From positions 110,529 to 142,528 of the forward strand of contig NZ_NESM01000001.1 of the NCBI RefSeq assembly GCF_002778285.1: 32,000 bases of DNA. Reading direction: 5' to 3'. A program made the position numbers and the translations under genes. Below the pieces are notes generated by a model. It ran no database searches and was not told where the DNA came from. It saw only the letters and a program-made list of their open reading frames with translations. Source of the DNA: Limnohabitans sp. 15K (GTDB taxonomy: Bacteria > Pseudomonadota > Gammaproteobacteria > Burkholderiales > Burkholderiaceae_C). This document shows positions 4,099 through 24,405 of this stretch, piece after piece; positions within the stretch are counted from its first letter, which is position 1, and each line of letters starts with the position of its first letter.

Positions 4099-4108
4099 AG
4101 AAGACGCC

Positions 4109-5823: not shown

Positions 5824-5863
5824 TTTCTTCACATCAAGCGCCAATCATGCCTCAAGGCCGACC

Positions 5864-7933: not shown

Positions 7934-9120
7934 GCCTGCGCGTCCGTTGGGGCCTCTTCAGGCAAAGTGGCCAACAAAGCCATGCCCAGCAGCATCACCC
8001 CGGCGGTCAACCACAGCGCTCCCTTAAAGGTGCCGGTGGCCTGCGCCATGGCCCCGGCCACCACGGGCGCGATCACCTGCGCTGCGCCATAACTCAAGGT
8101 CAATCGGGCCATGGCTTTGCCGGGGTTGTACGGTGCTCGCCGCCCCACCAGGGCCAGCGTCAAGCTCACAATGCCAATGAAAGTGCCGCCATAGCCCAAG
8201 GCACCGCACAAAGCAGCGGCCAAAGAGCCCGACAGCGCGGGCAAGATGACGGACACGGTTTGCAAGCCAAAGGCCAACAACAAAGCCCGTGTGTCGCCCA
8301 CACGCCGGGCCACCTTGTCCCACAGAAAAACGGTGGGCATGGCTGCCAAACCCACCAAAGCCCAGGCCAGTGCGCCCTGCCCGGCCAAAGCCGGTTCGCG
8401 CTCGACAATGGCCACGGTGAAGGTGGCGCTGATCACAAAACCCCAACCCGCCGCAAAGTAGCTGCCCGCCATGGTCAGCATCCAGCGGCGAGAGACTTTG
8501 TGAACCGCCTGTGCTGCCGTTGCTGCAGACGTTGCAGGCGGGACGGGTGGCCGCCACAACCAAGCCGGCACAAAAAACACCAGCCCGATCGCCGCCATGG
8601 CCAGCCACTGCTGCGACCACAGCGTCCAGATTTGCGACACGCCCCATGCCCCAAGCGCCGACACCACAATGCCCAAGCCCAGACCAATGAAATGCACGCC
8701 CAGCTCGGGCCGTCGACCTTGCCGCATCAGCCAACCCAAGACCAAACCGGCGCCCAACAGCATGCCGGTGGCCCCACACAAGCCGCCCAGATAGCGCCAC
8801 AGTGCCCAAGCAGGCATCCAAGTGGACAGCGCCATCCCCGCCACAGTGAGCAGCGACAGCCAAAGCCCCATACCGTAGAGGCGGTGCCGCCAGCGGACAT
8901 CGTCGATCCAGGCTGCGGCCAAAGCGCCGGAGATGTAACCCGCGTAATGGATGGCTGCCAAGCCCCCGGCTGCGGCATCGCTCAGGCCGGTTTGCAATTG
9001 AAGCTGGGGCAACAAGGGGGTGAAGGCAAAACGGGCCAGTCCGATGCTCAGGACCAAGCCACAAATACCGCCGACGATGACTTGCCAGGGTTGCAGGGTG
9101 GCGGAAGAAGCTTTGAACAT
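7930..9120 (-). CDS. MFS transporter (YbfB/YjiJ-like)
   Basis: The 396-aa protein is highly hydrophobic with about 12 predicted TM segments. ATG is at 9120. Its stop overlaps the helicase start (ATGA at 7930-7933). Confidence 0.8.
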   Translation of the reverse strand: MFKASSATLQPWQVIVGGICGLVLSIGLARFAFTPLLPQLQLQTGLSDAAAGGLAAIHYAGYISGALAAAWIDDVRWRHRLYGMGLWLSLLTVAGMALSTWMPAWALWRYLGGLCGATGMLLGAGLVLGWLMRQGRRPELGVHFIGLGLGIVVSALGAWGVSQIWTLWSQQWLAMAAIGLVFFVPAWLWRPPVPPATSAATAAQAVHKVSRRWMLTMAGSYFAAGWGFVISATFTVAIVEREPALAGQGALAWALVGLAAMPTVFLWDKVARRVGDTRALLLAFGLQTVSVILPALSGSLAAALCGALGYGGTFIGIVSLTLALVGRRAPYNPGKAMARLTLSYGAAQVIAPVVAGAMAQATGTFKGALWLTAGVMLLGMALLATLPEEAPTDAQA

Positions 9121-9319
9121 GTTCGGGGCATGTTAACGGTGCGTGTCGCCAAGATGCGTCACTTTCGCGGCCCCAGAGACGCCGAAAAATCGAGAAATAC
9201 TTTTAATTTCGAGGATTTTTATGGATTTTCATCAAAATCGTCTGAAACATCCCCAATTGGGGGTGTTCTAGGGATTTGGTTTTATCGAAAATAAAAAAAT
9301 CAATATAAAAATCAATCAG

Positions 9320-9946
9320 ATGTCCGAAACCCTGAACCGCGAAATCGACAACGCCACCACCAGCGCTGAATTTTTGACCAGTTCCCAAGCCGCCAAGCGT
9401 TTGGGTTTGTCCATGGCAACGATCCAAAAGTTGGTCGACAACAATGTCTTACAAGCTTGGAAGACCTTTGGCGGACACCGCCGCATCTCGCTCGCTTCCA
9501 TCCTGAACTACCAAAGTGCCAACAATTTTTTGGATGTACCACGCCAGAGCACCGATCGCCGAGCCAAGGTGATGATGGTGATCGAGTCGCCCGAGATGAC
9601 CGCCCGACTGAAAAAAGACATCCCTCAGTGGCATCTGCCTTTGCAAGCCGCGTTTCAAGAATCCTTGACCGAAGCCCTGCTGGAACTTCTGAACGACAAG
9701 CACGATCTCTTGGTCATACAGATGAGTGGTCTGAAGAAGCAGCAAGAAAAAGTCTTGGAAATCTTGCAAAAGTTCATGAGCTCTCGGCACACCGTGGCCC
9801 ACACCCTGGTTCTGACCCAAGAAAATGAGCTCTTGCCCAGCAGCACGTCGGGCGCGCCTGTGAGCATCCAGGTGCTCAACAAAGACCTCTCACCGATGTG
9901 GCTGTCGGCCTATTTGTCAGGCTTTGTGGCGCAGCGACGGCTCTGA
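9320..9946 (+). CDS. excisionase/MerR-type HTH DNA-binding protein with a degenerate receiver-like C-terminal domain
   Basis: LTSSQAAKRLGLSMATIQKLVDNNVLQAWKTFGGHRRI is an HTH_17/excisionase-type motif. The following segment, KVMMVIESPE...DLLVIQMSG, has a receiver-like beta-alpha pattern but lacks the acidic pocket and phospho-acceptor Asp. Confidence 0.6.
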   Translation: MSETLNREIDNATTSAEFLTSSQAAKRLGLSMATIQKLVDNNVLQAWKTFGGHRRISLASILNYQSANNFLDVPRQSTDRRAKVMMVIESPEMTARLKKDIPQWHLPLQAAFQESLTEALLELLNDKHDLLVIQMSGLKKQQEKVLEILQKFMSSRHTVAHTLVLTQENELLPSSTSGAPVSIQVLNKDLSPMWLSAYLSGFVAQRRL

Positions 9947-9959
9947 GTACATCTGCCAC

Positions 9960-10871
9960 TCAGATGTGGCCCCAAACCATCAAGGCGTCACGCCCTTCGG
10001 TGACCAGGTCCACCTTGGCGCCCACGGGCAGCAGCACCTTGGTTTCGACATGGCCGAAGGGCAAACCGGTGAGCACTGGCGCTTTGATCTGGCTGCGCAG
10101 CCGCTCGACCACGGTGGCCAGCTTGAAGCCCTTGTCGTGCGTGGGCACCAGCTTGTATTTGCTGAATTGCCCGATCAACACCGCCTTTTGCTGGGCCAAC
10201 ACACCCGCAAGCAAAAGCTGCGTGAGCATGCGTTCAACGCGGTAAGGGTGCTCGCCCACGTCTTCTAAAAAAAGCACGCCGCCTTTAATTTGCGGAAAGT
10301 ACGGTGTGCCCAGCAAGGACACCAACACCGACAAGTTGCCGCCCCACAGGGGCGCGTCTTTCACCAGCACGCGGCGCTCGGCCTCGGCTTTGGGCAGTTG
10401 CCAGCCTGTGCCTTCGCCTTGCTCCAACAGCAGGTCGTCAAAACAGGCTTGCATGATGTCGTCGGGCTCCTCTTCTGAGCCAAAGTCTTCACCCAGCGCA
10501 GGGCCTTGCCAGCTGATGCGGCCAGTCTTGGCGTACACCGCTTGGTTGAAGGCGGTGAAATCACTCAAGCCCACAAACTGCATGCCGCCATCAATCGCTT
10601 TGGCGATCTGTTTGTAGGGCAGCGCGGGCAGGATGCGCGTGAGGCCGTAGCCGCCGCGCGAGATGAGGGCCACATCTGCACCGCTGGCGGCAGCGCGGGT
10701 GATGGCAGCGATGCGCGTGGCGTCGTCGCCTGCAAAGCGCATGTGGGTGTCCAAAGCCGATTCGTCCACTTCCACTTCGTGGCCTTGGGCTTTGAGGCGT
10801 TTGATGCCGCGACGAAAAGCGGCTTTGTCGCGCACAGCGCTGGAAGGAGAAAAAATGTAGATGTGGGCCAT
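9960..10871 (-). CDS. ldcA: LD-carboxypeptidase (peptidase S66, muramoyltetrapeptide carboxypeptidase)
   Basis: MAHIYIFSPSS...ISRGGYGLTRIL...GLSDFTAF (Ser nucleophile context)...GHV. The start is set to ATG 10871. The ORF extension to 11084 overlaps the upstream gene and looks like GC-rich read-through. Confidence 0.8.
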   Translation of the reverse strand: MAHIYIFSPSSAVRDKAAFRRGIKRLKAQGHEVEVDESALDTHMRFAGDDATRIAAITRAAASGADVALISRGGYGLTRILPALPYKQIAKAIDGGMQFVGLSDFTAFNQAVYAKTGRISWQGPALGEDFGSEEEPDDIMQACFDDLLLEQGEGTGWQLPKAEAERRVLVKDAPLWGGNLSVLVSLLGTPYFPQIKGGVLFLEDVGEHPYRVERMLTQLLLAGVLAQQKAVLIGQFSKYKLVPTHDKGFKLATVVERLRSQIKAPVLTGLPFGHVETKVLLPVGAKVDLVTEGRDALMVWGHI

Positions 10872-10885
10872 GCGGGTGTTCTTGA

Positions 10886-12876
<1,991 letters not shown>

Positions 12877-12980
12877 GGCGATGAATGTACCAAACCAAGG
12901 TTGTGCGAGTTGGTACACGAACGGTTGAATGGATCGAAAATCACTTGACGTTTAACGCATGTCGTTATACGCTTCGCAAC

Positions 12981-13259
12981 ATGATCCAGTCGTTTCGATG
13001 CAAAGACACCCATGCATTGTTTGCAGGTCAAACAGTTGCTCGGTTCGTCAACTTCGGCAAAGTGGCCGAACGCAAACTGGTCATGTTGCACCGATCGGTT
13101 CGACTAGAAGATTTGAGAATACCCCCGAACAACCGGCTCGAAGCGCTCAAAGGCAATCGCAGTGGTCAATTCAGCATCCGCATCAATGACCAGTGGCGCA
13201 TTTGCTTCCGATTTGAAAACGGCCATACGTTCGATGTTGAGATAGTGGACTATCACTGA
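12981..13259 (+). CDS. higB: type II toxin, HigB/RelE-family (plasmid maintenance system killer)
   Basis: The 92-aa MIQSFRCKDTHALFAGQ...RLEALKGNRSGQFSIRINDQWRICFRFENGHTFDVEIVDYH is the classic HigB-type pattern. It sits directly upstream of a HigA-like HTH gene. Confidence 0.85.
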   Translation: MIQSFRCKDTHALFAGQTVARFVNFGKVAERKLVMLHRSVRLEDLRIPPNNRLEALKGNRSGQFSIRINDQWRICFRFENGHTFDVEIVDYH

Positions 13260-13270
13260 AAGGAGTTGAG

Positions 13271-13612
13271 ATGAAAGTTGAAGATGCCACCCCAGCCTAC
13301 CTCGTTCCAGTCAACGGCATGCGCCCCATTCATCCTGGCGAAGTGCTGCGGGAAGAGTTTTTGACGCCCTACCAACTCACGGCACATGCCCTCTCAATGG
13401 CGCTGCAAATACCCGCCCCGCGAATCAACGACATCGTGCGCGAAAAACGCGCCATCACCGTGGACACCGCCTTACGTTTAGCCAAGTTTTTTGGCAACAG
13501 CGCCGAATTCTGGATGGGCTTGCAAACCGACTTTGACATGGCCGTGGCGCGTCAGTCGATGCAAGATGCACTGGACAGGATTCGGGAATATCAGCCCGCA
13601 CAAGCACAATAA
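13271..13612 (+). CDS. higA: type II antitoxin HigA (XRE-family HTH)
   Basis: IHPGEVLREEFLTPYQLTAHALSMALQIPAPRINDIVREKRAITVDTALRLAKFFGNSAEFWMGLQ is the HigA/VapI signature. AAGGAG lies upstream of the ATG. Confidence 0.85.
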   Translation: MKVEDATPAYLVPVNGMRPIHPGEVLREEFLTPYQLTAHALSMALQIPAPRINDIVREKRAITVDTALRLAKFFGNSAEFWMGLQTDFDMAVARQSMQDALDRIREYQPAQAQ

Positions 13613-13617
13613 AACAA

Positions 13618-13640
13618 AGGCACCCGAGGGTGCCTTTTTT
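13618..13640. terminator. rho-independent, probably bidirectional, terminator
   Basis: The stem is AGGCAC/GTGCCT with loop CCGAG-like, followed by TTTTTT on the + strand and TTTGTTTT on the - strand. It immediately abuts the guaA-3'-end relic at 13641. Confidence 0.65.
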
Positions 13641-13656
13641 GTCATTCCCACTCAAT
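13641..13656. repeat. attL-like core (relic copy of the guaA 3' end)
   Basis: GTCATTCCCACTCAAT has reverse complement ATT GAG TGG GAA TGA, which reads I E W E stop. It matches 22791-22806 at 14/16 positions. Confidence 0.75.
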
Positions 13657-13830
13657 ACATACACAGGCAAAAACCCTAATAAAATCAACAACTTGCATCT
13701 ACTGATTTTGTGCGTGTAAGTTTTGTGTGAGTTTCGCAGTTAATCAGACACTCAACAAGGCATGCTTAAAGTGTTGAAAATCATTGCTTAAGCAGGAATA
13801 TGGATACACGTCGTGTAGCAATTATAGAAG

Positions 13831-14079
13831 TCAAATTCGCCTCACATCACAAAACCAAATTTTTGACTCATAACCATTCCAAGTTCCATACTGGATAGTA
13901 TCACCTGATTTTAATAAAAATAAATTTTTCAGGGTTAGAGGATATGAATTTTCCCAATTAGTTAAGTTCATTTTCCTGTAACTTCCGTCATCAAGCAACA
14001 AGATAATTTCATTGTCTCTGATGTAAAAACCATAAAAAATTGCTTTATTCCATGTGACGTCACCTAAAATATGTGTCAT
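13831..14079 (-). CDS. hypothetical small protein (82 aa)
   Basis: The ORF lies 6 nt downstream of the secreted 192-aa ORF on the same strand. It has island-type AT-rich codon usage and no recognisable motif. Confidence 0.4.
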   Translation of the reverse strand: MTHILGDVTWNKAIFYGFYIRDNEIILLLDDGSYRKMNLTNWENSYPLTLKNLFLLKSGDTIQYGTWNGYESKIWFCDVRRI

Positions 14080-14085
14080 AGTAAA

Positions 14086-14664
14086 TCAAAATAAAATTTT
14101 CTTTGAGTCTTTAACACACTTGCCTTCAACCTCAAGATTCACATACATATCACGAACTCTAGTAGGCAGCAAATCGTTAAGCCAACTACTAAAGCCGTAT
14201 ATTGTATGACTCCAAGAAAAACTTCCATCAACCCTATCGAGCACTATAAACCTGCGTGTATAAGAATATAAGCTTCGTTCAATGGGGTATTTTTCATCAT
14301 CTTTGAAATTTTTATAGCGTTCACGAGTGTAGCTACCACGATAATATGTATCCTTTACCTCTAAACCACCATACTCAAACAAATGGTCATTGCTTGGATC
14401 AGAATAAACAGAAGGTATGTTTTTAAACTCGTAATCATTATTAACCGTGATAATTCCGTCAGCTATTGTAACAACTAACGTCATGGGCTTGATTTTTACG
14501 AACTTATCAAGCTCATTTTTAGGGATGTTTATATTAATAGATGGACCAACCTTAGCAGCACCTTCACAACGAAGGTAAATTTTATCTTGTCCTAGTACGG
14601 AGGTACTTGCCAAAGTACAAAGAGAGACAATGAGAAGGGTTAGATGAGACTTAAATTTGAGCAT
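14086..14664 (-). CDS. hypothetical exported protein (192 aa)
   Basis: The N-terminal signal peptide is MLKFKSHLTLLIVSLCTLASTSVLG/QD. The mature part is rich in Tyr/Asp/Lys. I recognise no family. Confidence 0.55.
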   Translation of the reverse strand: MLKFKSHLTLLIVSLCTLASTSVLGQDKIYLRCEGAAKVGPSININIPKNELDKFVKIKPMTLVVTIADGIITVNNDYEFKNIPSVYSDPSNDHLFEYGGLEVKDTYYRGSYTRERYKNFKDDEKYPIERSLYSYTRRFIVLDRVDGSFSWSHTIYGFSSWLNDLLPTRVRDMYVNLEVEGKCVKDSKKILF

Positions 14665-14677
14665 AACAGCAGCCGTT

Positions 14678-14706
14678 TTGACATGTAGGTTGGTTGCTTA
14701 TATGAT
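14678..14706 (+). promoter_or_regulatory. sigma70-type promoter for the H-NS-like gene
   Basis: TTGACA (14678-14683), an exact 17-nt spacer, then TATGAT (14701-14706). TAAGGAG follows 7 nt before ATG 14755. Confidence 0.5.
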
Positions 14707-14754
14707 ATGGAGGGAGTTACCAATTGTCAATCTCAGCACCTAAGGAGCCCCTCA

Positions 14755-14985
14755 ATGATGTCACGTGTAGACGAAATCAACGCACAAATCGCCAAGCTGG
14801 AAGCTGAACGCACCTCTGCTATGAAAGCAGAACGTGCAAACGTGCTTGCGAAGATGAAAGCTGACATCAAGCTGTATGGCTTCAAAACAACAGACTTCAA
14901 AGGTGTCTTGTTGACACGTGCTAAACGTAGCCCCAACGGTACACGTGCGGCTAAGAAGGCTGCGACTAAGAAGTCAACAAAGTGA
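14755..14985 (+). CDS. truncated H-NS-family protein (oligomerisation domain plus basic tail, no canonical DNA-binding domain)
   Basis: MMSRVDEINAQIAKLEAERTSAMKAERANVLAKMKADIKLYGFKTTDFKG matches the N-terminal coiled-coil/dimerisation pattern of betaproteobacterial H-NS-like proteins. The ORF ends 26 aa later in a Lys/Ala-rich tail without the TWxGRGRxPxW-type motif. Confidence 0.55.
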   Translation: MMSRVDEINAQIAKLEAERTSAMKAERANVLAKMKADIKLYGFKTTDFKGVLLTRAKRSPNGTRAAKKAATKKSTK

Positions 14986-15019
14986 ATTTTTCCATTTACT
15001 GTTGTTGTTGAGGGATATT

Positions 15020-15361
15020 ATGCAAAGCTACTATTCAGCACAAGTTTGGAATAAACAATCAGTAAAGTTGCCTTACACCTGTAAAACTGCAAAGCCCTCT
15101 GACTGGGAACAGGTATCAAATGTACCTGTAATTCACGTCATAGACGCGATGTATAGAAATTCAACCGTAAGCGGAACTTTTGTAATTTCCCCCTTTGTTT
15201 TAGTTCCCATATCACTAAATCAATCAGGAAAAATTGATGTTTTATGCAGATGGTTTAATCACAGATTGGTTTCAACTGGATTATCTTTAATTATCAATCT
15301 AACAACCACAAAATTCGATCACAACTTTACAGGAAATGTGATTTCAAATATTGAAAAATGA
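15020..15361 (+). CDS. hypothetical protein (113 aa)
   Basis: ATG 15020 is preceded by GAGGGA. The longer ORF from 14918 overlaps the H-NS-like gene. No motif is recognised. Confidence 0.4.
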   Translation: MQSYYSAQVWNKQSVKLPYTCKTAKPSDWEQVSNVPVIHVIDAMYRNSTVSGTFVISPFVLVPISLNQSGKIDVLCRWFNHRLVSTGLSLIINLTTTKFDHNFTGNVISNIEK

Positions 15362-15498
15362 GAGATTTGGAATGGTTTTTCATCAATCTTGATCATCAAC
15401 AGCGGAAAAAGCAATCCAATTCATTTAAATTAGATCGAGTTCAATTCAATTTTGATGTTGCTTTTTTTACTTTTCAATCAGTTAATAAAGGACTTTAA

Positions 15499-16173
15499 AT
15501 GTCAAATTTCTGCTCTCAGTGTGGTACAGCAGTTTCAGAAAATAACTCTGCAAATTGTGTTAACTGCGGAAAGCCCCTAAGCGTAAACTCTGAAAGCTCA
15601 AAAAATGATTCAATAAATGAGGCAAAAGATAAATTATTTAATTTTGCAAAGAGTATCAAAGATGCATCAATTAAAGCAAGCCAAGACTTAAAATCTGATG
15701 AAACTAAATCAAAGATAAAAAATTTTACAGATCGAGCTCAGAGTTTTGCGTCAGAAAAAACAAAAACTATTAAAGAAGATTTTAACAAAATCAACGAAGC
15801 AAGAAAGGCAGCTATAATTGAAGTCAACGATATAGATTCAAAATCGAAGATTGAGACAACCAAAAAATTCACATTTTCTTTCTGGTCTAAATTAACTGGA
15901 AATCAAAAAGGAATATTAATTGGATCTTGTGCGGTATTAATTTTATTAATAACGCAATTTGGAGATGATATAAATTCAGATGCCAGAAAGACTGCCAGCT
16001 ATATTTGTGTTATAGATAATTATAAAAAAATGGATGAATTATCATTAGGGAAATATATGGACGAGGCAAGTGAATGGATGAAAAAAATGCGAATCAAATA
16101 CTCGGACCCGAGAAAATTTAGCGAATACTCATCTGCCGTTGTTAATGCCCAGAAAAAAACTTGCGGCTTCTAA
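15499..16173 (+). CDS. zinc-ribbon domain membrane protein
   Basis: The N-terminus has CSQC-x11-CVNC (four-Cys zinc ribbon), followed by a Lys/Ser-rich probable coiled region and one TM helix (ILIGSCAVLILLITQF). AAAGGA lies upstream of the ATG. Confidence 0.6.
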   Translation: MSNFCSQCGTAVSENNSANCVNCGKPLSVNSESSKNDSINEAKDKLFNFAKSIKDASIKASQDLKSDETKSKIKNFTDRAQSFASEKTKTIKEDFNKINEARKAAIIEVNDIDSKSKIETTKKFTFSFWSKLTGNQKGILIGSCAVLILLITQFGDDINSDARKTASYICVIDNYKKMDELSLGKYMDEASEWMKKMRIKYSDPRKFSEYSSAVVNAQKKTCGF

Positions 16174-16190
16174 TATTTACAAGGGAATAT

Positions 16191-16340
16191 ATGTTTGATG
16201 TATTTTTTGGAATTATTCTTGCGTTTGGTTTCATTTATTTAGTTGGAAATTTTAAAAACTTCTCACCAGCAACAAGAGCACTAATTGGAGCAATAGCTGG
16301 TGCTTCATTTATGATATATATGCTTAAGAGTTTTACATGA
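16191..16340 (+). CDS. possible 49-aa two-TM micro-protein (below the ORF-track cutoff)
   Basis: ATG 16191 is preceded by AAGGGA. The product is MFDVFFGIILAFGFIYLVGNFKNFSPATRALIGAIAGASFMIYMLKSFT, with two hydrophobic helices. Confidence 0.35.
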   Translation: MFDVFFGIILAFGFIYLVGNFKNFSPATRALIGAIAGASFMIYMLKSFT

Positions 16341-16347
16341 TATTTCT

Positions 16348-16461
16348 TTAAGCCAACTCAATCGCTTTGCGTTTCATTGCGTCATTGACGTCAATGTATG
16401 CCTGTGTAGTTGAGATATTCGCGTGCCTTGCGATGCTTTGTAACACTCTAACGCTATCACC
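16348..16461 (-). pseudogene. 3'-terminal relic of a tyrosine recombinase gene (last 37 codons plus stop)
   Basis: The relic encodes GDSVRVLQSIARHANISTTQAYIDVNDAMKRKAIELA-stop. By hand alignment it is 96/114 nt and 35/37 aa identical to 17629-17742, the end of the intact recombinase. The frame breaks upstream (stop codon, similarity decays by about 16470). Confidence 0.75.
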
Positions 16462-16536
16462 TATTTACAACACCAAACTGTCTTGCCTTTGAGTCATAAC
16501 AAAAAACTTATAACGCAGCCTTATCTTCGTATTGCC

Positions 16537-17625
16537 ATGAAATATTTTCGAATCACATCAATATGTTTTTTTATTACATATCTTTTATGCGCTTCACATA
16601 TTGCCAATGCATTTTGGGGCAGTGATTATGACGAACCTCCTCCGATAATTCGCACTGAACCACCAAACGCTCAAGAAATTAAAAATTTGAAATTTGGCAA
16701 TAAAGCACTCAATGAACAAGTAATAAGGTTTGGGTTAGCGATTCATACACCTTTAATTCCAGATTGGAGTGAAAAAAAATCTGGAAAGCTTCTTGCAAGC
16801 TGGAATCCTAATAATCAAAATGGGAAAAACCCAACACTTGTTATACAGCATGGCGGTGTTGGTGGACCAGGCGCAACAGACTACGGGCATGCGCGATGGT
16901 TCCTTGCTCAAGGTTTTAATGTTCTAGTTCTTGATAGCTTTTGGAGTCGAGGTTTTATAGCAAACTGGCGAAGAATTGAAGCAAGTGTCAGCGAACATGG
17001 TAATGCGTTTTCGACACTGGGAGCCAATACTCGTGCTAGGGACGCATTTGCGGCAGCTCGATGGCTACGGGAGCAACCGCAAGTTGATACAAATCGTATA
17101 TTTCTAATAGGCGGGAGTCAAGGCGGCTGGAGCGTTTTACGAGCATTTACAGACGAAAAATCAATTACAGAAAATTATAAAGAATTATTTCGTGCTGGAA
17201 TTTCAATATATCCTGCTTGTTGGAGCTGGCAACGCACTCCAGGCAATCACGGCAAAAACGCCACTCAGAATTTAAATCCAAAATTAGGTCCATTTTATGC
17301 TCCAGTTTTTTTGATTTCAGCAGAACTAGAGCCGCCAGGTACTGCCACTGACATTAATTCTTGCAACCCAAATATCGTTAATTGGGCACACAAGCATTTA
17401 AGACTAGCAGAAACCACTCATGCATTTGACTCAGAAACACCTCCAGAAAAACCAGTTAACAGTTGCTGGTACAGCAACAATCCACATTGGTGTACAGCAT
17501 CTGGTGGGCGCGATGCATTAACAAGAAATTGCATTGGTGCACCTAAAGCTGACTTCTGCTCAGATATTGAAGTAACAAAAAAAGTAAGAAGCGAAATGCT
17601 TAATTTCTTAAATTCATTTAAATAA
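16537..17625 (+). CDS. secreted alpha/beta-fold serine hydrolase (esterase/lipase/dienelactone-hydrolase-like)
   Basis: The signal peptide is MKYFRITSICFFITYLLCASHIANA. The nucleophile elbow is IGGSQGGW. The C-terminal part is Cys-rich. The track ORF begins with TTG at 16483, and ATG 16537 gives the signal peptide at the N-terminus. Confidence 0.7.
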   Translation: MKYFRITSICFFITYLLCASHIANAFWGSDYDEPPPIIRTEPPNAQEIKNLKFGNKALNEQVIRFGLAIHTPLIPDWSEKKSGKLLASWNPNNQNGKNPTLVIQHGGVGGPGATDYGHARWFLAQGFNVLVLDSFWSRGFIANWRRIEASVSEHGNAFSTLGANTRARDAFAAARWLREQPQVDTNRIFLIGGSQGGWSVLRAFTDEKSITENYKELFRAGISIYPACWSWQRTPGNHGKNATQNLNPKLGPFYAPVFLISAELEPPGTATDINSCNPNIVNWAHKHLRLAETTHAFDSETPPEKPVNSCWYSNNPHWCTASGGRDALTRNCIGAPKADFCSDIEVTKKVRSEMLNFLNSFK

Positions 17626-17628
17626 TAT

Positions 17629-18204
17629 TTAAACTAACTCAATTGCCTTGCGTTTCATAGCGTCATTGACGTCAATGTAGGCTTGGGTTGTACTGATATT
17701 CGCGTGCCTCGCGATGCTTTGCAACACCCTAACGCTTACGCCTTTATCTGCCAAATTGGTTATTAGCGTACGTCTTGGGCTGTGACTGGAAGCACCCTCA
17801 ATACCTACGCTCTTAAACAAGTGATGGAAGAATTGGCAAAGCGTGTTGCTGTTCCAGCCATCTTGTGGACGCTTCTGTGAATAGAACAGTTTGTCTGTGA
17901 GTGCTTTTGGCGGTATTGATTTGACGTAAGCTTGTAGCTCTTTGCGTAGCTTGTCGCTGACAAATACAGTGCCTGCTTTGCTGCCCTTTGTCTGTTCTGG
18001 CGTTAAGCGTATTTCAGCCCTAATCTTGCCCTCCCCGTCAATCACGTCCTCATAACGCAAAGCCGCGCACTCCTTAACACGAAGTCCTGCGTAGTACATC
18101 GTCAACAACATCGCACGATTACGCAGGCTGTGCTTGCGTGTAGCTACGTAATCCAGCACACGACGAATTTCTTGGGCAGTTAGTGTTTTTGCTTGCTTGG
18201 ACAT
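17629..18204 (-). CDS. small tyrosine recombinase, catalytic domain only (191 aa)
   Basis: AGLRVKE (Arg I), HSPRRT (H-x-x-R) and ARHANISTTQAYID (His and catalytic Tyr). AGGAGA lies 6 nt before ATG 18204. There is no N-terminal core-binding domain. Confidence 0.85.
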   Translation of the reverse strand: MSKQAKTLTAQEIRRVLDYVATRKHSLRNRAMLLTMYYAGLRVKECAALRYEDVIDGEGKIRAEIRLTPEQTKGSKAGTVFVSDKLRKELQAYVKSIPPKALTDKLFYSQKRPQDGWNSNTLCQFFHHLFKSVGIEGASSHSPRRTLITNLADKGVSVRVLQSIARHANISTTQAYIDVNDAMKRKAIELV

Positions 18205-18340
18205 CAATGCTCTCCTAAATGTAAGCTTTTCAATGTCTAAAGCATAAATTCTTTGTTTCTTAATTCCTACCTGTTTTTGGCTTTGTTGGTTCAAGTTGTT
18301 TTCCTTAATGATTTCAACGACTTAGCGTTTGAATGCGAAA

Positions 18341-18370
18341 AACCAAAGCTAATAGTAAAAAGCTTTGGTT
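18341..18370. terminator. 10-bp perfect stem hairpin, terminator-like in both orientations
   Basis: AACCAAAGCT, loop AATAGTAAAA, then AGCTTTGGTT. The + strand continues CTTTATTTAT and the - strand continues TTTTTCG. Confidence 0.45.
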
Positions 18371-18733
18371 CTTTATTTATGGAAAATATTGTGGGATTTA
18401 AGCGACTAAGCTTGCTTACGCTATACAAGCTCTACACGCTGTTTTTCACTGTGCCAGCTACCCAATGCTTCGCTCAGTGCTTTCAAGCGTTTGTAGCTTG
18501 TTTTTGCGTATCAGTTCTGCCCTACTGCTTTTGATTTGCTTTGTAGCCAAACAAATATGATGCGTACTGCTCATTATTTGAGTGTTTACTATAGTACTTT
18601 AGTTAAGTTTCATTGTTTGTTTGTGTGTTTGATTGCTTGTTTGATGTTTGTTTTAGACATAGCTACGCCATTAAGCACATTGCTGTGCTTTCAACCATCA
18701 ACCGCAAGCGTCACTTTGGACAGGAATGCTTAA

Positions 18734-19318
18734 CTACGGTAGGTAAAGATTTTTCATATCTTTACCGTCAAGTTTTTTTGTAATGTATGTGAGCCAACCC
18801 TCGTCAATCAAGTCGAGTTTGTATCTGTATTTTTCAGCCAAACTATTTGCTTCAGCGTCATAGTTTGGATTTGCAATTTCAAAGTCACCGCTCAATTCAA
18901 GTGCTTTTTTTACTGCTCTAACGAAATCTTTAAGCGGAACTTTTTCTGGCCTACGAATGGCAAAGTGAGCGTGTAAATCAATCAATTCTTGTTCACCCTC
19001 TGTCACCATCACAATGTCCAAACGCTTGTTAAAACGCTTGTAAGCTTGCTTGAATGTGAGCCTGTTTAGAAGCTCTACAAACCTATTGCTGGCGCTGACA
19101 AGCTCACTGCTGTTTAAGTGACGTAGTACCTGCGGGTTTTTCATCTCATAGCGAACTGATTTCTGCTTGTGATGCACCTTTTTGGGCATCAGCGTCAAAC
19201 CCATATCAAAACGCTGTTCGCAGCCCTTGCCAAGCCAATCTGCAAGCACCTGCCTGCGTGACAGCCTGTCATAGCCCTTTTGCTGGCATCTCTCCTGTAG
19301 TTCCTGTAATTTGCTCAT
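18734..19318 (-). CDS. YagK/YfjJ (inovirus gpII-like) family candidate, possible HUH nuclease/replication initiator
   Basis: The product from ATG 19318 is 194 aa. RFDMGLTL (compare RFDLHFP in YagK), LHAHFAI (u-H-u-H-u-u-u) and LTYITKK (YxxK) are in the order and spacing expected for HUH proteins. The track ORF extension to 19525 overlaps the divergent gene. Confidence 0.45.
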   Translation of the reverse strand: MSKLQELQERCQQKGYDRLSRRQVLADWLGKGCEQRFDMGLTLMPKKVHHKQKSVRYEMKNPQVLRHLNSSELVSASNRFVELLNRLTFKQAYKRFNKRLDIVMVTEGEQELIDLHAHFAIRRPEKVPLKDFVRAVKKALELSGDFEIANPNYDAEANSLAEKYRYKLDLIDEGWLTYITKKLDGKDMKNLYLP

Positions 19319-19420
19319 ACGTTTATTTATACAAACCAAAGAAAAGGAGATAGTTTTTTCAGGTTGTCCTATAGACATTTTGGTTATATAGTTTAGTTTT
19401 AACAACCAAAAAGGTGATAT

Positions 19421-19861
19421 ATGACAGCCATTGCAAAGCTTAAGCTGGTATCCAGCAAGAAAGAGCGTAACGTTAGTCCAGTCGTAGCTCGCAGAAACAA
19501 ACTTGCAGGAAAAATTGATGAGCAATTGCTGTTTGCTACTGCACAGCGAGATGGACAGATTTATGCTCCAAAACGGCTAAAGAACGTCATTGACAAAGCA
19601 ACTGGTGAACGAAAAACAGTTGAAGCGACAAAGCGTATTAAAGAATGGTACTGGACGAACAGTACAGGCAAAATCCATCTGTCTGTTCGCTACGGAAGCA
19701 AAACACTTGAGTTGGCTAAAGGCAAGAACGCTATTGAATTGAACTCTGGTGATGAATTGCTTGCGACACTGGCAACGCTGAAAGAAGCTGTTATTGCAGG
19801 CGAATTAGATGATGCCATCGCTCAAGCAAGCGACAAACTGAAAGCAGGATTCACCAAATAA
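19421..19861 (+). CDS. conserved hypothetical protein (146 aa)
   Basis: AAGGTGA lies upstream of the ATG. The pattern SPVVARRNKL...YAPKRL...RIKEWYW...VRYGSKTLELAKGKNAIE...AGELD resembles a hypothetical family I recall from plasmids and islands. I cannot verify the family name. Confidence 0.55.
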   Translation: MTAIAKLKLVSSKKERNVSPVVARRNKLAGKIDEQLLFATAQRDGQIYAPKRLKNVIDKATGERKTVEATKRIKEWYWTNSTGKIHLSVRYGSKTLELAKGKNAIELNSGDELLATLATLKEAVIAGELDDAIAQASDKLKAGFTK

Positions 19862-19882
19862 AGAGATTTTAAAATTACAAAT

Positions 19883-19932
19883 AGCTCCATTTGAGATTAC
19901 TGATAAGTAATTTTGAATGGAGCTTTCTTATG
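19883..19932 (+). terminator. long hairpin (about 19 bp including G-U pairs, GAUA loop) followed by a T-rich tract
   Basis: AGCTCCAT-TTGAG-ATTACT-GATA-AGTAAT-TTTGA-ATGGAGCT, then TTCTTAT. It starts 22 nt after the stop of the 146-aa gene. The right arm contains the GGAG that would serve ATG 19930. Confidence 0.45.
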
Positions 19933-20118
19933 ACTATAAATGAACTTAAAGGTATCAAACCAATTGGACCTATGTCGCCTGAAAAGGCACGAATTGAAGC
20001 ACTCAAAAGAACGAAAGATACGGCAGCTAAAAACTTAAAGGCAGAGAGAGAACGTCAAAAACTCGCAAAAGCGAGAGACACCGTTTCTGCTCTCGCTTTT
20101 AAGTCAATCAAGCTTTGA
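19930..20118 (+). CDS. hypothetical small basic protein (62 aa)
   Basis: ATG 19930 has GGAG 8 nt upstream, but that SD is buried in the hairpin. The product is Lys/Arg/Ala-rich and probably helical. Confidence 0.3.
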   Translation: MTINELKGIKPIGPMSPEKARIEALKRTKDTAAKNLKAERERQKLAKARDTVSALAFKSIKL

Positions 20119-20230
20119 TGTAGGCACCATACAAGCTGTCGTTTTGTTTTCCGTTTGCGACACGGTTTGTCTGCCTATTTTAACGCCGCTGTAGGGCTGC
20201 TTTGACGTGTTTATTGGTGCCATTAAGCGA

Positions 20231-21322
20231 TTACTTAAGTGGAATTTTAAGGAAACCACCCCAGTCTGATATGAGCGCGCCTTCAGACTCAATCATCCAT
20301 CGCATAGATGTAAATTTATAACTTTTTCGAGTTGGGTCCACCCAATCTTTATTCTCGTAAATTACTTCAGAATTTTTACCACATATCTTTTGGATGAAAA
20401 CACCTCTGTACCAAATTGCTCTATTGCCTTTTTCTCCGCCAGTCCGCATTACATACAAACAGTTGTCATTTTTCGACAGTATAAAATCCAAAACATTGCC
20501 AGCGCCAGATACGGGCGGGATAGTTAACCCGCCAAAATTTGCGAACTCATTTTTACCATTATTAAAATATATTGTTGTGGGCGTTTCCCACTCATGTGCG
20601 CCAGATATAACGTCGAACTTTCCATCACTGTTCACATCTATTAGTTCAATTGAAAATGCACGTTTAATTTGACTTAATGTCCTGTCATATTTGAACTTTC
20701 CATCTCCCAAGTTAATATAGAGTTTGGGGCTATTCATTGTACCTACTAGCAAATCAGGAAATCCATCTCCGTTAAAATCCTCACTTGCACCCCCATGATA
20801 AAAATCTACATCGTCGTGCAAAACTTGAAAATCATATTCATTGGAAGATTTACTCAATAAAATCTTCATCTTTTCACCTGGAAATGGCATTGCATCATAT
20901 CCCTGACACATAAATGCAAAATCAATTACATTGTCATTATTAAAATCAGCGGAAACTATTTTTCGAGCATGGATACATGTCTCTGCTTTGTAATTTATTT
21001 TCACATCTGCTTTTACCCACTCTGAATTATTCATTACATAAAAATTTACTATTCCAGATTTTGCTTGTTGCAATGTGTGATTATGCGTTTGATACCCATG
21101 CTCATTTGCAAGTAAGCCATTATTGCCATCTGCATATTTAAAAAAGGCTCTTGCCTCCGCCAATAATGGAGTACGCCCCCATGAATCAAGAGGAAATGTT
21201 TCAGAATAAAAAGGTGGATGTTTGGCGTTCTGATAGGAGCTTATTTTGTCGAATGAATTAGCATTCGTACAATTCAAATAAACCACCAAAAACAAGAAAA
21301 TCAACTTTGTAAAATTAGTCAT
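20231..21322 (-). CDS. secreted FG-GAP/VCBS-repeat (beta-propeller) protein
   Basis: The signal peptide is MTNFTKLIFLFLVVYLNCTNA. Repeated Ca-binding-type motifs are DFNNDNVIDFAF, DFNGDGFPDLLVG and DVNSDGKFDVISG. AGAGG lies upstream of the ATG. Confidence 0.7.
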   Translation of the reverse strand: MTNFTKLIFLFLVVYLNCTNANSFDKISSYQNAKHPPFYSETFPLDSWGRTPLLAEARAFFKYADGNNGLLANEHGYQTHNHTLQQAKSGIVNFYVMNNSEWVKADVKINYKAETCIHARKIVSADFNNDNVIDFAFMCQGYDAMPFPGEKMKILLSKSSNEYDFQVLHDDVDFYHGGASEDFNGDGFPDLLVGTMNSPKLYINLGDGKFKYDRTLSQIKRAFSIELIDVNSDGKFDVISGAHEWETPTTIYFNNGKNEFANFGGLTIPPVSGAGNVLDFILSKNDNCLYVMRTGGEKGNRAIWYRGVFIQKICGKNSEVIYENKDWVDPTRKSYKFTSMRWMIESEGALISDWGGFLKIPLK

Positions 21323-21348
21323 TGTTTGCCTCTTTCATTGATTGACGT

Positions 21349-22632
21349 TTACTTGGGAATCAACATCCCGTCTTTGTACTCATAATCTGCCAAAGCATTG
21401 CTAATCATCTTCGCTTCTGTTGTATGGTAATAAGTCTTCTCAATTTGCGAGATGCTTGTACCGCACATCTCTGCTACTGCCGCAGGTGGCAAGTTACTGT
21501 TGACACGTTTGGTAATGAAGTAATGCCTAAAGCTGTATGGCACTAAGTCTCTATTTTCTGTGTGTTTAATTTCTGCCAGCTCAATAATTTTGTCAAAGTG
21601 GTAGCCAATTGAGCGTGGCGTAATACAGCTTTCACCATTAAGCCTAAAAATTAAAGAGTTTGCAAATTTAGCTTTTTTGTCCTCGCCTTCGTATTCATCT
21701 GCAAAGCGTTTGTATTGAAGCTTAAATAGTCTGTCAAAGTAATCCAAATCTTTAATTACAAATCTTCGTGTCTTTAAGACTTTGCTTGTTTCCGCACGTA
21801 CAGTTATTCTTACTAAATTGAAGTCAACTCCGTCTTTTCCACCAACGTTGTGCTCGAATTCTGTAATGTCTTTCCAGCGTAGTTGTAATTGCTCGCCTCT
21901 GCGTAATCCACTAAGTAAGCTAATCATCAAATAGTAGCCAGTAATTGCCTTTATTAGATTTCCGCTTTCATCGATTTGCTTCTCTGCTTCATCAATGTAC
22001 TTGTCAAGCTCGTTACTAATGTCGCGCACTTCATCGTCTGTAAACGTTGCACGTCGATTTTCATCAAGTCCTTTGTCGATACGCTTTAATTTCTTAAAGT
22101 CGAAGCCATCAATGTTTGTTTCTTTGTGCTTATGAAGCCAAGCAATCATTGCATTTATGGTGCTTTGTTCATTCTCAACAGTAGTCTGACTAATCTTTAT
22201 GTTTTTCTTTGTCTTTGTTCTTTTGTAGCCGTAATCTTCGCAATCCGTTCGCTCTAATTCCTTAAGCTTTACGTCTTTGCCAATAAAGTTAAGCCAATGA
22301 TTTAGATGTGTGCTGATTGTTTTGTATCTGCCAACGACAATGTGTGTGCCAATTTCTTTCTTTTTGTATTCCAAAAACATCTCAACACCCATCTTAGTGG
22401 TGATTGAAAAATAGCTTTTGCCTTGCTTCTCCATCACCTTAAGCTCGTAGTAATGGCTCTCAGCTTTGTCGATAGCTGTGCTTTTGCTTCGTGTTTTTAG
22501 ACTGAAACGGGCGTATTTGTGTTCGTTGGGCAGCCACATACGCATCTGCCAAAACTCGCCTCGTTTGTACAGAACGGCGTTGTCAAACAGCGGAATTTCG
22601 TCGTCGCTAAATTGCTTTTTTTTGAGCGTCAT
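21349..22632 (-). CDS. int: tyrosine-type site-specific integrase of the island
   Basis: LSGLRRGEQLQLRW (Arg I), YSFRHYFITK (H-x-x-R) and SQIEKTYYH (catalytic Tyr). The gene is adjacent to the att core at guaA. The track start 22668 is TTG, and the first ATG is at 22632. Confidence 0.9.
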   Translation of the reverse strand: MTLKKKQFSDDEIPLFDNAVLYKRGEFWQMRMWLPNEHKYARFSLKTRSKSTAIDKAESHYYELKVMEKQGKSYFSITTKMGVEMFLEYKKKEIGTHIVVGRYKTISTHLNHWLNFIGKDVKLKELERTDCEDYGYKRTKTKKNIKISQTTVENEQSTINAMIAWLHKHKETNIDGFDFKKLKRIDKGLDENRRATFTDDEVRDISNELDKYIDEAEKQIDESGNLIKAITGYYLMISLLSGLRRGEQLQLRWKDITEFEHNVGGKDGVDFNLVRITVRAETSKVLKTRRFVIKDLDYFDRLFKLQYKRFADEYEGEDKKAKFANSLIFRLNGESCITPRSIGYHFDKIIELAEIKHTENRDLVPYSFRHYFITKRVNSNLPPAAVAEMCGTSISQIEKTYYHTTEAKMISNALADYEYKDGMLIPK

Positions 22633-22680
22633 AAAGCTTTGGGTAACTACAGTTTTGAGTAGCCGCAACGCTGTGCGACT

Positions 22681-22782
22681 CTTTGTGTAACTGTAAACCC
22701 AAAAGCGTTTAAAAGCAACGACTTAGCGTGTCGCGTGAAACTTTTGTGTAAGCTGAAAACCTATATAAATCAACAACTTAGC
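22681..22782 (+). promoter_or_regulatory. two imperfect tandem units upstream of int (candidate arm-type integrase/RDF binding sites and int promoter region)
   Basis: Unit 1 is CTTTGTGTAACTGTAAACC..AGCAACGACTTAGCGT (22681-22729). Unit 2 is CTTTTGTGTAAGCTGAAAACC..ATCAACAACTTAGC (22741-22782). Confidence 0.45.
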
Positions 22783-22790
22783 TCAAAAAA

Positions 22791-22806
22791 GTCACTCCCA
22801 CTCGAT
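22791..22806. repeat. attR-like core overlapping the guaA stop codon
   Basis: GTCACTCCCACTCGAT has reverse complement ATC GAG TGG GAG TGA, the true end of guaA. It is a direct repeat of 13641-13656. Confidence 0.75.
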
Positions 22807-24405
22807 CGTTGCCGGTGGTTTTGAGCTCACGTCGTATGTGACTCGGTTGATGCCGCGCACCTCGTTGATGATACGCCCCGACACTTTCTTGAGCAGCGCA
22901 TAAGGCAACTCAGCCCAGTCGGCGGTCATGAAGTCGCTGGTTTGCACAGCGCGCAGGGCCACGACGTAGTCGTAGGTGCGCCCGTCGCCCATCACGCCCA
23001 CGCTTTTCACGGGCAAGAACACCGTGAAAGCCTGGCTGGTCAGGTCGTACCAGGTCTTGCCCGATTCGTCCGTGAAGTTGCGCAGCTCTTCGATGAAGAT
23101 CGCGTCGGCACGGCGCAGCAAGTCGGCGTATTCTTTTTTCACTTCGCCCAAAATGCGCACGCCCAAACCGGGGCCTGGGAAGGGATGGCGGTAAACCATC
23201 TCGCGGGGCAAACCCAGCGCCACGCCGAGTTCGCGCACTTCGTCTTTGAAGAGTTCGCGCAGCGGCTCCAGCAGTTTCAAGCCCAATTGCTCGGGCAAAC
23301 CGCCCACGTTGTGGTGGCTCTTGATGGTGACGGCTTTCTTGCTCTTGGCGCCGCCCGACTCGATCACGTCGGGGTAAATCGTGCCTTGGGCCAGGAATGT
23401 CGCGCCTTTGTGGCCGCCGTCGCCTGCTTTCAATTTCGCAGCCTGCTCTTTGAACACGTCCACAAACAAGCCGCCAATGATCTTGCGCTTGGCTTCAGGC
23501 TCGCTCACGCCCGCCAGTTTGCCGAGGAACAAGTCGCTGGCATCGACGCGGATGACTTTCGCGTGCAGCTTGCCCACGAACATCTCCATGACCATGTCAC
23601 CTTCATTGAGCCGCAGCAGACCGTGGTCCACAAACACGCAGGTCAGCTTGTCGCCGATAGCGCGGTGGATCAAAGCAGCAGCCACCGACGAATCGACGCC
23701 GCCCGACAAGCCGAGGATGACTTCTTCGTCACCCACTTGCTCTCGGATTTTGGCCACGGCTTCTTCGATGTAGTCGCCCATGATCCAGTCTTGGCGGGCC
23801 TGGCATATGTCGAGCACAAAACGGTTGAGCAGCGCCTGGCCTTGCACGGTGTGTGTGACTTCGGGGTGGAACTGCACCGCATAAAAACGGCGGGCCTCGT
23901 CGGCCATGCCTGCAATCGGGCAAGCCGGGGTCGAGGCCATGACCTTGAAACCGTCTGGCATCTGGGTGACCTTGTCGCCGTGGCTCATCCAGACCTTGAG
24001 CATGCCGTGGCCTTCGGCCGTGGCGAAGTCTTCAATGCCTTTGAGCAGTTCAGTGTGGCCGTGGGCGCGGACTTCGGCGTAGCCAAACTCGCGCGTGGTG
24101 CCTGCCTCGACCTTGCCGCCGAGTTGCTGGGCCATGGTTTGCATGCCGTAGCAAATGCCCAGCACGGGAATGTCCAGTTCAAACACAGCATCGGGGGCTC
24201 GGTCGTCAACTTCGTAGACGCTGGCATGGCTGCCCGACAGGATCACGCCTTTGAGGTTGCCGTCCTTGGCGTATTCACGCACCCAATCGCTGCTCACATC
24301 GCAGGGATGAACTTCGCAGAACACATGGGCCTCACGCACACGACGGGCGATGAGCTGGGTGACTTGCGAGCCGAAGTCGAGAATCAGGATCTTGGAGTGC
24401 TGCAT
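22792..24405 (-). CDS. guaA: GMP synthase (glutamine-hydrolysing)
   Basis: The 537-aa protein has the GATase domain (GICYGMQ, catalytic Cys), the ATP-PPase P-loop (LSGGVDSSV) and the canonical C-terminus PPATIEWE. Confidence 0.97.

Follow-up and report, generated by a model that had tools for sequence, protein, structure and literature searches.

A truncated recombinase gene end in a guaA-integrated island of Limnohabitans as a probable relic of a join between two related island lineages

The 32,000-nt stretch of DNA from Limnohabitans sp. 15K analysed here (the window) contains a genomic island of 9.1 kb (∼13646–22803), which has a GC content of 30–46% within DNA of ∼60% GC and abuts the 3' end of guaA. 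The att core at its right end, GAGTGGGA on the minus strand, lies inside the last guaA codons (22796–22803); that at its left end, the same sequence on the same strand, lies in a five-codon guaA relic (ATTGAGTGGGAATGA; 13646–13653), and TCCCACTC is located at both positions. Proceeding from guaA, the island carries an integrase, an FG-GAP protein, a DUF6641 protein, a protein with HUH motifs, a conserved non-coding region, a small tyrosine recombinase, a hydrolase, a relic of the recombinase gene and more cargo. We are concerned here with that relic, with the live gene end that it repeats, and with the hydrolase gene that lies between them. Related loci with which the window was compared are given L-numbers; 78 loci were surveyed for extra recombinase copies.

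The small tyrosine recombinase gene (17629–18204, minus strand) starts at an ATG behind AGGAG and encodes 191 amino acids (aa) that match PF00589 with E = 2e-29. The protein is a catalytic domain only. The R, K, HxxR, H and Y residues are all present (LRVKE, TKGSK, HSPRR, ARHAN and QAYIDV), and the N-terminal core-binding domain is absent: alignments to PDB structures cover the catalytic domain only, the whole protein corresponding to residues ∼102–273 of 4a8e and ∼109–281 of XerD (∼100–280 across XerA, XerC-like and XerD structures). The XerC, XerD and XerA models score it far below their cut-offs, as do the integron-integrase model TIGR02249 (46.6 bits against a 265-bit cut-off) and NF011946 (22 against 435). 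There are 2767 relatives at E ≤ 1e-10, many of them 83–96% identical and most on short metagenome contigs; in genomes the gene is found in Limnohabitans, Polynucleobacter, other Comamonadaceae and Burkholderiales, with more distant members in Alphaproteobacteria, and no relative was found in IMG/VR. Catalytic-domain-only relatives of 33–47% identity in PLSDB and INPHARED are common on plasmids of Acinetobacter (156 records), Piscirickettsia (143 records, with up to five copies per plasmid) and Legionella, and in phiCbK-like Caulobacter phages; all of these are annotated only as site-specific integrase or hypothetical protein.

The end of this gene is present twice. Repeat detection on the window returned 16347–16462 and 17628–17743 as a 116-nt direct repeat with 84% identity and a spacing of 1281. 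Within it, R1 (17629–17742, minus strand) comprises codons 155–191 and the stop codon of the live recombinase, and closes the 191-aa open reading frame (ORF) with all its catalytic residues, while R2 (16348–16461, minus strand) is the relic, the last 37 codons and stop of a second, diverged copy. The first-pass annotation, made from the sequence alone, had reported this pair, and its measurements hold: the repeats lie in the same orientation and are identical at 96 of 114 nt, R2 matches the recombinase at 35 of 37 aa on the minus strand (GDSVRVLQSIARHANISTTQAYIDVNDAMKRKAIELA and stop, the counterpart in the live gene being GVSVRVLQ...ELV and stop), and of the 18 nucleotide changes 15 belong to synonymous codon pairs, a TCA/AGT serine pair among them. 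By the Nei–Gojobori method, dS between R1 and R2 is ∼1.0 and dN is 0.057. In 5000 shuffles the mean was 29.6 and the maximum 45 identical positions of 114, which excludes chance or low complexity as the source of the repeat. A weaker similarity had been thought to extend leftwards over the convergent gene junction, but this is not significant (12.5% of shuffles reach its score) and we rejected it.

On the recombinase-5' side the homology breaks off sharply, at codon ∼155, or at ∼148 if decay is allowed for; its other edge is the stop codon. R2 retains His-III and the catalytic Tyr, has an in-frame TAA directly upstream and no start codon, and is preceded by sequence unrelated to the recombinase. 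This sequence is the spacer jH (16462–16536, plus strand), 75 nt that run from R2 to the hydrolase start codon and whose left edge is the join of non-recombinase DNA to recombinase codon ∼148–155. The 19 nt of jH beside R2 (TATTTACAACACCAAACTG) are identical in L069. Three candidate roles were rejected: for the relic, those of a translated peptide (given the TAA and the lack of an ATG; an internal GTG exists, with no evidence of its use) and of a hydrolase promoter (there is no sigma-70-like site in 16300–16540), and, for the 14-bp palindrome CATTGACGTCAATG within the repeat, that of a recombination site (its wobble positions vary freely in relatives).

The hydrolase gene (16537–17625) had been placed with the others on the minus strand; it is a plus-strand gene that converges with the recombinase gene, the two stop codons being 3 nt apart. 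Its product is a secreted alpha/beta-hydrolase of 362 aa, with a signal peptide and a GGSQGG serine motif. The Pfam matches are weak (Peptidase_S9, DLH and Abhydrolase_3), and relatives carry the JGI name 'dienelactone hydrolase'. The GC content, said earlier to exceed that of neighbouring island genes, is 40.3%, which is higher than in the cargo to the left on the plus strand (Zn-ribbon gene, 31.9%; orf59, 30.6%) but lower than in the recombinase gene on the minus strand (47.7%).

The position at which the hydrolase gene meets the recombinase gene is variable in the family. Among 70 intact recombinase genes taken with 150 nt of downstream sequence, we found 54 unrelated downstream types, so that the expectation of different genes abutting the recombinase 3' end was borne out. 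The recombinase stop marks the beginning of the cargo, the first gene of which is usually convergent, with a stop codon of its own that overlaps that of the recombinase or lies within about 30 nt of it, and no shared or attC-like motif was found in the downstream flanks of the 70 genes. The variable position is simply the boundary between backbone and cargo of the whole family. The shared backbone comprises the integrase, the DUF6641 protein, the HUH Rep-like protein and the 191-aa recombinase, and the order guaA, integrase, (variable), DUF6641, Rep-like, recombinase recurs; the cargo includes restriction–modification genes. The family is very abundant in freshwater Betaproteobacteria (Limnohabitans, Polynucleobacter and relatives). 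Synonymous diversity in the recombinase gene is flat and saturated (pS 0.81 for codons 155–191 and 0.78 for codons 1–154), and protein-level diversity is lower at the 3' end (pN 0.13 and 0.22 respectively); family-wide, there is no DNA-level (synonymous-site) constraint at the recombinase 3' end.

The module of relic, hydrolase and recombinase recurs in six other loci, in four other contexts, at 87–98% identity. Three loci from JGI metagenomes, L115–L117, are 96–98% identical to 16348–22800 of the window and share with it the recombinase, the hydrolase, the 75-nt spacer and the relic; to the left, beyond the relic stop codon, L115 and L117 have a different, 125-aa gene, and no sister island for the L115 slot gene was found in the sample. 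L069, a metagenome-assembled genome, has the module at 87% identity, with different DNA and other genes beyond the relic; it has lost the backbone between a point just upstream of the integrase start and recombinase codon 155/156. L110 has, in order, the recombinase, a Zn-ribbon gene, a decayed relic that has lost the catalytic Tyr, the hydrolase, and the same spacer and relic. In L111 there is a hydrolase with a recombinase stub from about codon 161 and no upstream relic, and in Polynucleobacter L039 integrase codon 32 is fused to recombinase codon 74, followed by the hydrolase with a chromosomal TctC gene upstream and, again, no relic. The window, L069, L110 and L115–L117 have inherited one and the same junction of jH and R2, and the DNA past the R2 stop differs among the window, L115/L117 and L069. 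Because the recombinase–hydrolase junction is also present in the relic-less L039, it is older than the spacer–relic junction.

Truncated recombinase copies are common in decayed islands. Their start points are many: codon 74 in L039, 95 and ∼125 in L065, 139 in L068, ∼150 in L070, ∼160 in L072 (after integrase codon 112), ∼161 in L111 and 168 in L071, the overall span across other loci being codons 41 to 168. Extra direct copies occurred in only two lineages among the 78 loci surveyed, the hydrolase lineage and L065, and an nhmmer scan for decayed relics between other cargo genes found none beyond these two. L065 (Reyranella massiliensis, 3747–12812) lacks the guaA-island backbone and provides another, independent example in which relics alternate with cargo. 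Behind its intact small recombinase come two more direct copies, both 5'-truncated; the intervals between the copies are of 6.9 kb, with GDSL lipase and radical-SAM genes, and of 1.6 kb, with a single 359-aa gene.

The premise of the first-pass annotation that the repeats recombine with each other was correct. In L115–L117 all six differences between R1 and R2 fall in the first 24 nt, and the remaining 90 nt, which are the same in both, are a conversion or crossover tract within the repeat. L002 and L003 are 99.85% identical until 10 nt before the stop codon, after which synonymous codons and cargo differ. The recombinase gene is likewise mosaic, because its identities to other loci disagree: the R2 copies of the window and L069 are 94.7% identical and the R1 copies only 82.5%, and the 5' 462 nt of the window recombinase are 92% identical to L011 and R1 only 85%. 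Relative to L010, L011 and L018 the live copy of the window is mosaic, and its R1 carries an AGT-ACA-ACC variant common to L018 and L010. The relics of the window and L069 differ at six positions, five of them synonymous, and identity along the hydrolase gene itself is patchy, at 70–97%.

We considered selection on the relic as a cause of its synonymous-biased conservation and rejected it; gene conversion, as seen in the L115–L117 tract and the patchy hydrolase identity, explains this better, and the relic still looks protein-constrained because of conversion from live genes. An origin of the relic from a diverged recombinase copy that was once under protein selection, as first proposed, is supported. 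The further argument, against a recent in-place duplication, is not so well supported, because it rests on the window R1, which has itself been exchanged. Excision of the hydrolase gene as a circle had also been predicted; no circle or deletion product was seen in the available sequences, in which one may not have been captured, and the module has been stable enough for six other loci to have it in common with the window.

The hydrolase has relatives outside islands. Thirty metagenome loci carry hydrolases that are 63–76% identical, with no recombinase and no relic. These are chromosomal genes, of high GC content where profiled and commonly beside a TctC/Bug gene, and in six of the 30 loci (L073, L078–L080, L084 and L101) the hydrolase is convergent with guaA at a distance of 0.04–2.9 kb. 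In L073 it lies 37 nt from a 60-codon guaA fragment. A native hydrolase block stands beside guaA in related Comamonadaceae and is absent from the host of the window, of which 12633–22792 was compared; L084 is syntenic with the window on both sides, and has the native block where the window has only a toxin–antitoxin pair and the island. The island-borne hydrolases (40–44% GC) are closest, at 78% identity, to chromosomal copies on contigs of ∼45–50% GC. The hydrolase that adjoins the recombinase stub of L039 has kept its TctC neighbour from the chromosome. Between the recombinase and hydrolase stops there are 3 nt in the window, 3 nt in L069 and 5 nt in L039. Because the relatives of the hydrolase are native chromosomal neighbours of guaA in related genomes, we believe that it was probably captured from the flank of the integration site in a lower-GC host and then mobilised. 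It would be a natural example of an island acquiring a gene from its integration-site flank, with the host gene found in three states: in the chromosome, joined to an island in decay, and mobile, as island cargo in a host that differs at genus level. The L069 hydrolase (10547–11233; protein P0177) has a premature stop, TGG to TGA at codon 229; the resulting 228-aa product is recorded for 22 contigs, so that the truncation is probably genuine and common, not a mistake of assembly.

We favour, with a probability of roughly 0.6, the explanation that the relic is a fossil of one non-homologous join of two related guaA-island lineages, which has since been kept and spread by homologous recombination. 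R2 would then be the 5'-truncated 3' end of a once-intact recombinase from the second lineage, with no function of its own. Of the alternatives offered by the first-pass annotation, that in which two related elements recombined with loss of one recombinase gene fits best. A chromosomal hydrolase gene beside guaA would first have come to lie stop to stop with the recombinase gene of an integrated island, fused to its 3' end. DNA ∼75 nt upstream of the hydrolase would then have been joined non-homologously to codon ∼148–155 of the recombinase of another island; the join itself is seen, and may have come about by an insertion–duplication, or by a deletion within two islands that lay in tandem or were co-resident. 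The product would have had the order recombinase, hydrolase, relic, older cargo. Thereafter the relic would have served as a homology arm, remaining ∼85–95% identical to live copies because protein-level conservation in the gene is highest over its last ∼40 codons, and homologous recombination through the relic and the live gene would move the hydrolase module and swap the cargo past the relic stop. The conversion tract demonstrates such exchange, which presumably depends on RecA.

Several points weigh against this explanation. Four independent relic boundaries (R2, L110 R_b, L069 R1 and L070) lie within codons ∼148–156, a tighter cluster than a uniform breakpoint model predicts, and L110 looks like a two-unit array of recombinase, gene, relic, hydrolase and relic. 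The longest exact run between R1 and R2 of the window is only 20 nt. Between the hydrolase and R2 (16462–16536) there is no GAGTGGGA core, no guaA fragment and no backbone fragment, so that a tandem-array origin, which should have left an att scar or part of the backbone there, needs an extra, or a very large, deletion. We found no donor island that has the left cargo of the window and lacks the hydrolase, and both the founding non-homologous join and the RecA dependence of the exchange are steps that we infer. As a trace of island evolution the relic is clear but fairly ordinary, and of a known kind (mosaic islands, insertion–duplication scars). Its interest is that of a dated scar, by which the order of cargo-acquisition events can be read in a small integrative element, and the comparison shows that the short end of a gene, when conserved in its protein sequence, can serve as a portable homology arm and drive cargo shuffling.

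The four clustered relic starts, and the two successive units of L110 with a relic after each, also speak for a different explanation, in which circular units, each a recombinase 3' end plus one convergent gene, are inserted by the small recombinase, or by some other enzyme of the island, through site-specific docking at codons ∼148–156, next to AGCGTTAGGG. Each insertion would give a new live 3' end and push the old one downstream as a relic. If this were true, the island would possess a new kind of gene-capture platform, self-targeting and integron-like, in which the recombinase gene is rebuilt at every capture and the old 3' ends remain as separators. The cargo does vary exactly from the stop codon, TTGTAAA occurs just upstream of GGTG at both junctions, and AGCGTTAGRG, 2–9 nt inside each boundary, resembles the conserved intergenic AGCGTGTAGRG (three matches to the pair of motifs in the window, with 0.11 expected). 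However, pS is unreduced at the supposed site (0.77–0.79 for codons 145–167), SVRV codon usage differs across the family, alphaproteobacterial members are without the motif, and TTGTAAA can be read as a decayed TTGGCAGATAAAGG from the recombinase gene itself. Other relics begin at codons 41, 74, 93, 95, 103, ∼125, 139, ∼161 and 168, and 74 of the 78 loci have no relic beside cargo genes. The crossovers are not at one point, lying at repeat position ∼24 in L115 and 10 nt before the stop in L002/L003, and no attC-like motif is common to the cargo flanks. Because the boundary clustering and the motif were noticed after the fact, and because the motif lies in coding sequence with variable synonymous sites, we regard docking as unlikely. 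Cassette insertion targeted to the recombinase 3' end, the other alternative of the first-pass annotation, is disfavoured by the lack of DNA-level constraint, the scattered relic starts and the differing crossovers.

We think it rather more doubtful still that the repeat arose in place within one element, either by tandem duplication of the recombinase 3' end or by insertion of the hydrolase with a long target duplication, and that the 16% divergence came later via exchange of R1. The window R1, with its AGT-ACA-ACC variant, has clearly been replaced, and the outgroup hydrolase-linked repeats are indeed nearer to R2 than the window R1 is (the L039 repeat is 91% identical to L069 R2 and 89.5% to the window R2). 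Nevertheless, L039 and L111 have the recombinase–hydrolase junction without a relic upstream of the hydrolase, and because they have one junction only, the two junctions must have arisen at different times. The chromosomal relatives of the hydrolase have an upstream context of their own, and we know of no mechanism that gives a target duplication of at least 114 nt around a 1.2-kb insert.

Deletion formation at nick sites is known for rolling-circle plasmids. Truncation by aberrant rolling-circle termination, with the HUH Rep-like protein nicking or terminating at a pseudo-origin, AGCGTTAGGG, inside the recombinase gene, is highly improbable here, since despite the invariant HUH motifs I–III of the neighbouring protein, the conserved inverted repeat with AGCGTGTAGRG between rep and recombinase, and the look-alike sequence at the relic boundary on the same strand, the origin sequence that is predicted on one side is absent from both sides of the jH–R2 and jZ–R_b junctions, and the look-alike is coding and varies at synonymous positions.

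The HUH Rep-like protein is encoded at 18734–19333 (minus strand). Its LTLT(L)K, LHxHFAI and GWxxYITKE motifs, invariant across relatives of 33–90% identity, form what we take to be the motif I–II–III pattern of HUH rolling-circle Rep proteins; the protein has no Pfam, PHROG or PDB match. Because of this pattern in a backbone protein, the island may replicate or be mobilised as a circle. The conserved cis region (18395–18520, minus strand) contains a near-invariant AACAGCGTRTAGGGCTT (core 18430–18440), kept even in family members of 60% identity, which forms an inverted repeat with AAGCTACAAACGC ∼50 nt upstream. The two arms co-vary, pairing is perfect in L035, and the core resembles the AGCGTTAGRG at the start of R1 and R2. 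The region may serve as an origin or as a site of recombination. A further conserved element between the Rep-like and recombinase genes, the hairpin CCAAAGCT(N7)AGCTTTGG with a T run behind it (18300–18345, minus strand), is probably an intrinsic terminator. A leader, ACAGGTAGGAATTAAGAAACAAAGAA (∼18249–18273, minus strand), lies 45–70 nt upstream of the recombinase ATG and is invariant and free of indels. Gene callers often fold it into a 221-aa ORF starting from TTG, and L012 has an in-frame TAA there; the leader is more likely a DNA or RNA element than coding. Rfam returned no RNA family in 12500–23000.

The integrase (21349–22668, minus strand), a tyrosine recombinase with a 439-aa ORF, adjoins guaA. 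The DUF6641 backbone gene (19421–19861, plus strand) is present in 43 of the 69 loci having an intact recombinase. Between integrase and DUF6641 lies a second variable slot, occupied in the window by the FG-GAP repeat protein gene (20231–21322, minus strand), which is also present in L011 and L116; other small genes replace it in most relatives. The cargo of the left slot (15499–16340, plus strand) comprises a Zn-ribbon protein gene (15499–16173, 224 aa) and orf59 (16161–16340), which overlap by 13 nt, the orf59 stop lying 7 nt from that of R2. A 267-aa protein of L110 (1350–2150) matches the window Zn-ribbon protein in its N-terminal 145 residues only, with 50% identity, and this cargo family looks like one with a common N-terminal module and variable C-terminal domains. 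A permutation of units between the window and L110 was rejected because the two Zn-ribbon genes share the N-terminal domain only and so are not the same cassette. Further left, a small gene at 14707–14985 (plus strand), H-NS-like by eye and convergent with the recombinase, is found in 31 related loci and is often the other conserved flank of the variable cargo slot; it has no Pfam or NCBIfam match and matches one PHROG of unknown function. Two adjacent small ORFs (124 and 113 aa; 12885–13612, plus strand) immediately beyond the left att core read, from their sequences alone, as a toxin–antitoxin pair. Their GC content of ∼50% is between that of the host (60%) and that of the island (35%), and they may have been left by an earlier insertion into this site.

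Literature searches returned no description of this guaA-island family, and 'DUF6641' appeared in no paper. The known element GIsul2 integrates at the guaA 3' end with the 8-bp core GAGTGGGA, and it and its derivatives have been reported on IncC plasmids (PMC9376610). Like it, the present island uses the guaA 3' end, has GAGTGGGA at both ends, and has its integrase beside guaA, followed by replication-type genes and then cargo. A tblastn search of 72,556 PLSDB plasmids with the window integrase gave no match at 1e-20, an intact GIsul2 int in that collection not having been confirmed, and the names of the GIsul2 backbone (alpA-repA/C-resG) are absent from the Pfam and NCBIfam matches of the window backbone, no GIsul2 sequence having been compared. 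The present family differs from GIsul2 in its backbone of DUF6641, mini HUH Rep and small tyrosine recombinase, in its freshwater Betaproteobacteria hosts, and in its cargo of defence, secreted and unknown genes rather than resistance genes.

The arrangement resembles an integron in that a tyrosine recombinase gene is directly followed by unrelated single genes, and in that repeats separate units in L110 and the window. However, the recombinase has 191 aa and lacks the N-terminal domain, whereas IntI has about 320 aa and an extra domain; there are no attC-like imperfect palindromes, the separators being recombinase gene stubs; and the genes are convergent with the recombinase, with starts of their own, and the repeats are found in two lineages only. 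As for a fixed crossover of the integron type, four relic starts lie at codons ∼148–156 and others at 41–168, and crossovers occur at differing positions of the repeat.

There are likenesses also to insertion–duplication and to mosaic islands. In Campbell-type insertion–duplication, and in 3'-end duplications of tRNA genes or guaA, a direct repeat of a gene 3' end flanks inserted DNA, the promoter-proximal copy completes a working gene and the distal copy is 5'-truncated and silent, as here, and the copies recombine homologously, as in the converted repeats of L115–L117. Here, however, the duplicated gene is the accessory recombinase of the island itself rather than a host gene, the inserted unit is without an integrase, and the copies are 16% diverged and exchange with those of other islands. 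With mosaic or tandem accretion of islands through recombination in backbone genes, our family shares a conserved backbone beside a hyper-variable cargo slot, a mosaic of backbone identities, and decayed islands that keep cargo after losing their mobility genes. It differs in that the homology arm is a 114-nt gene stub rather than a whole backbone gene, and in that this stub is refreshed by gene conversion.

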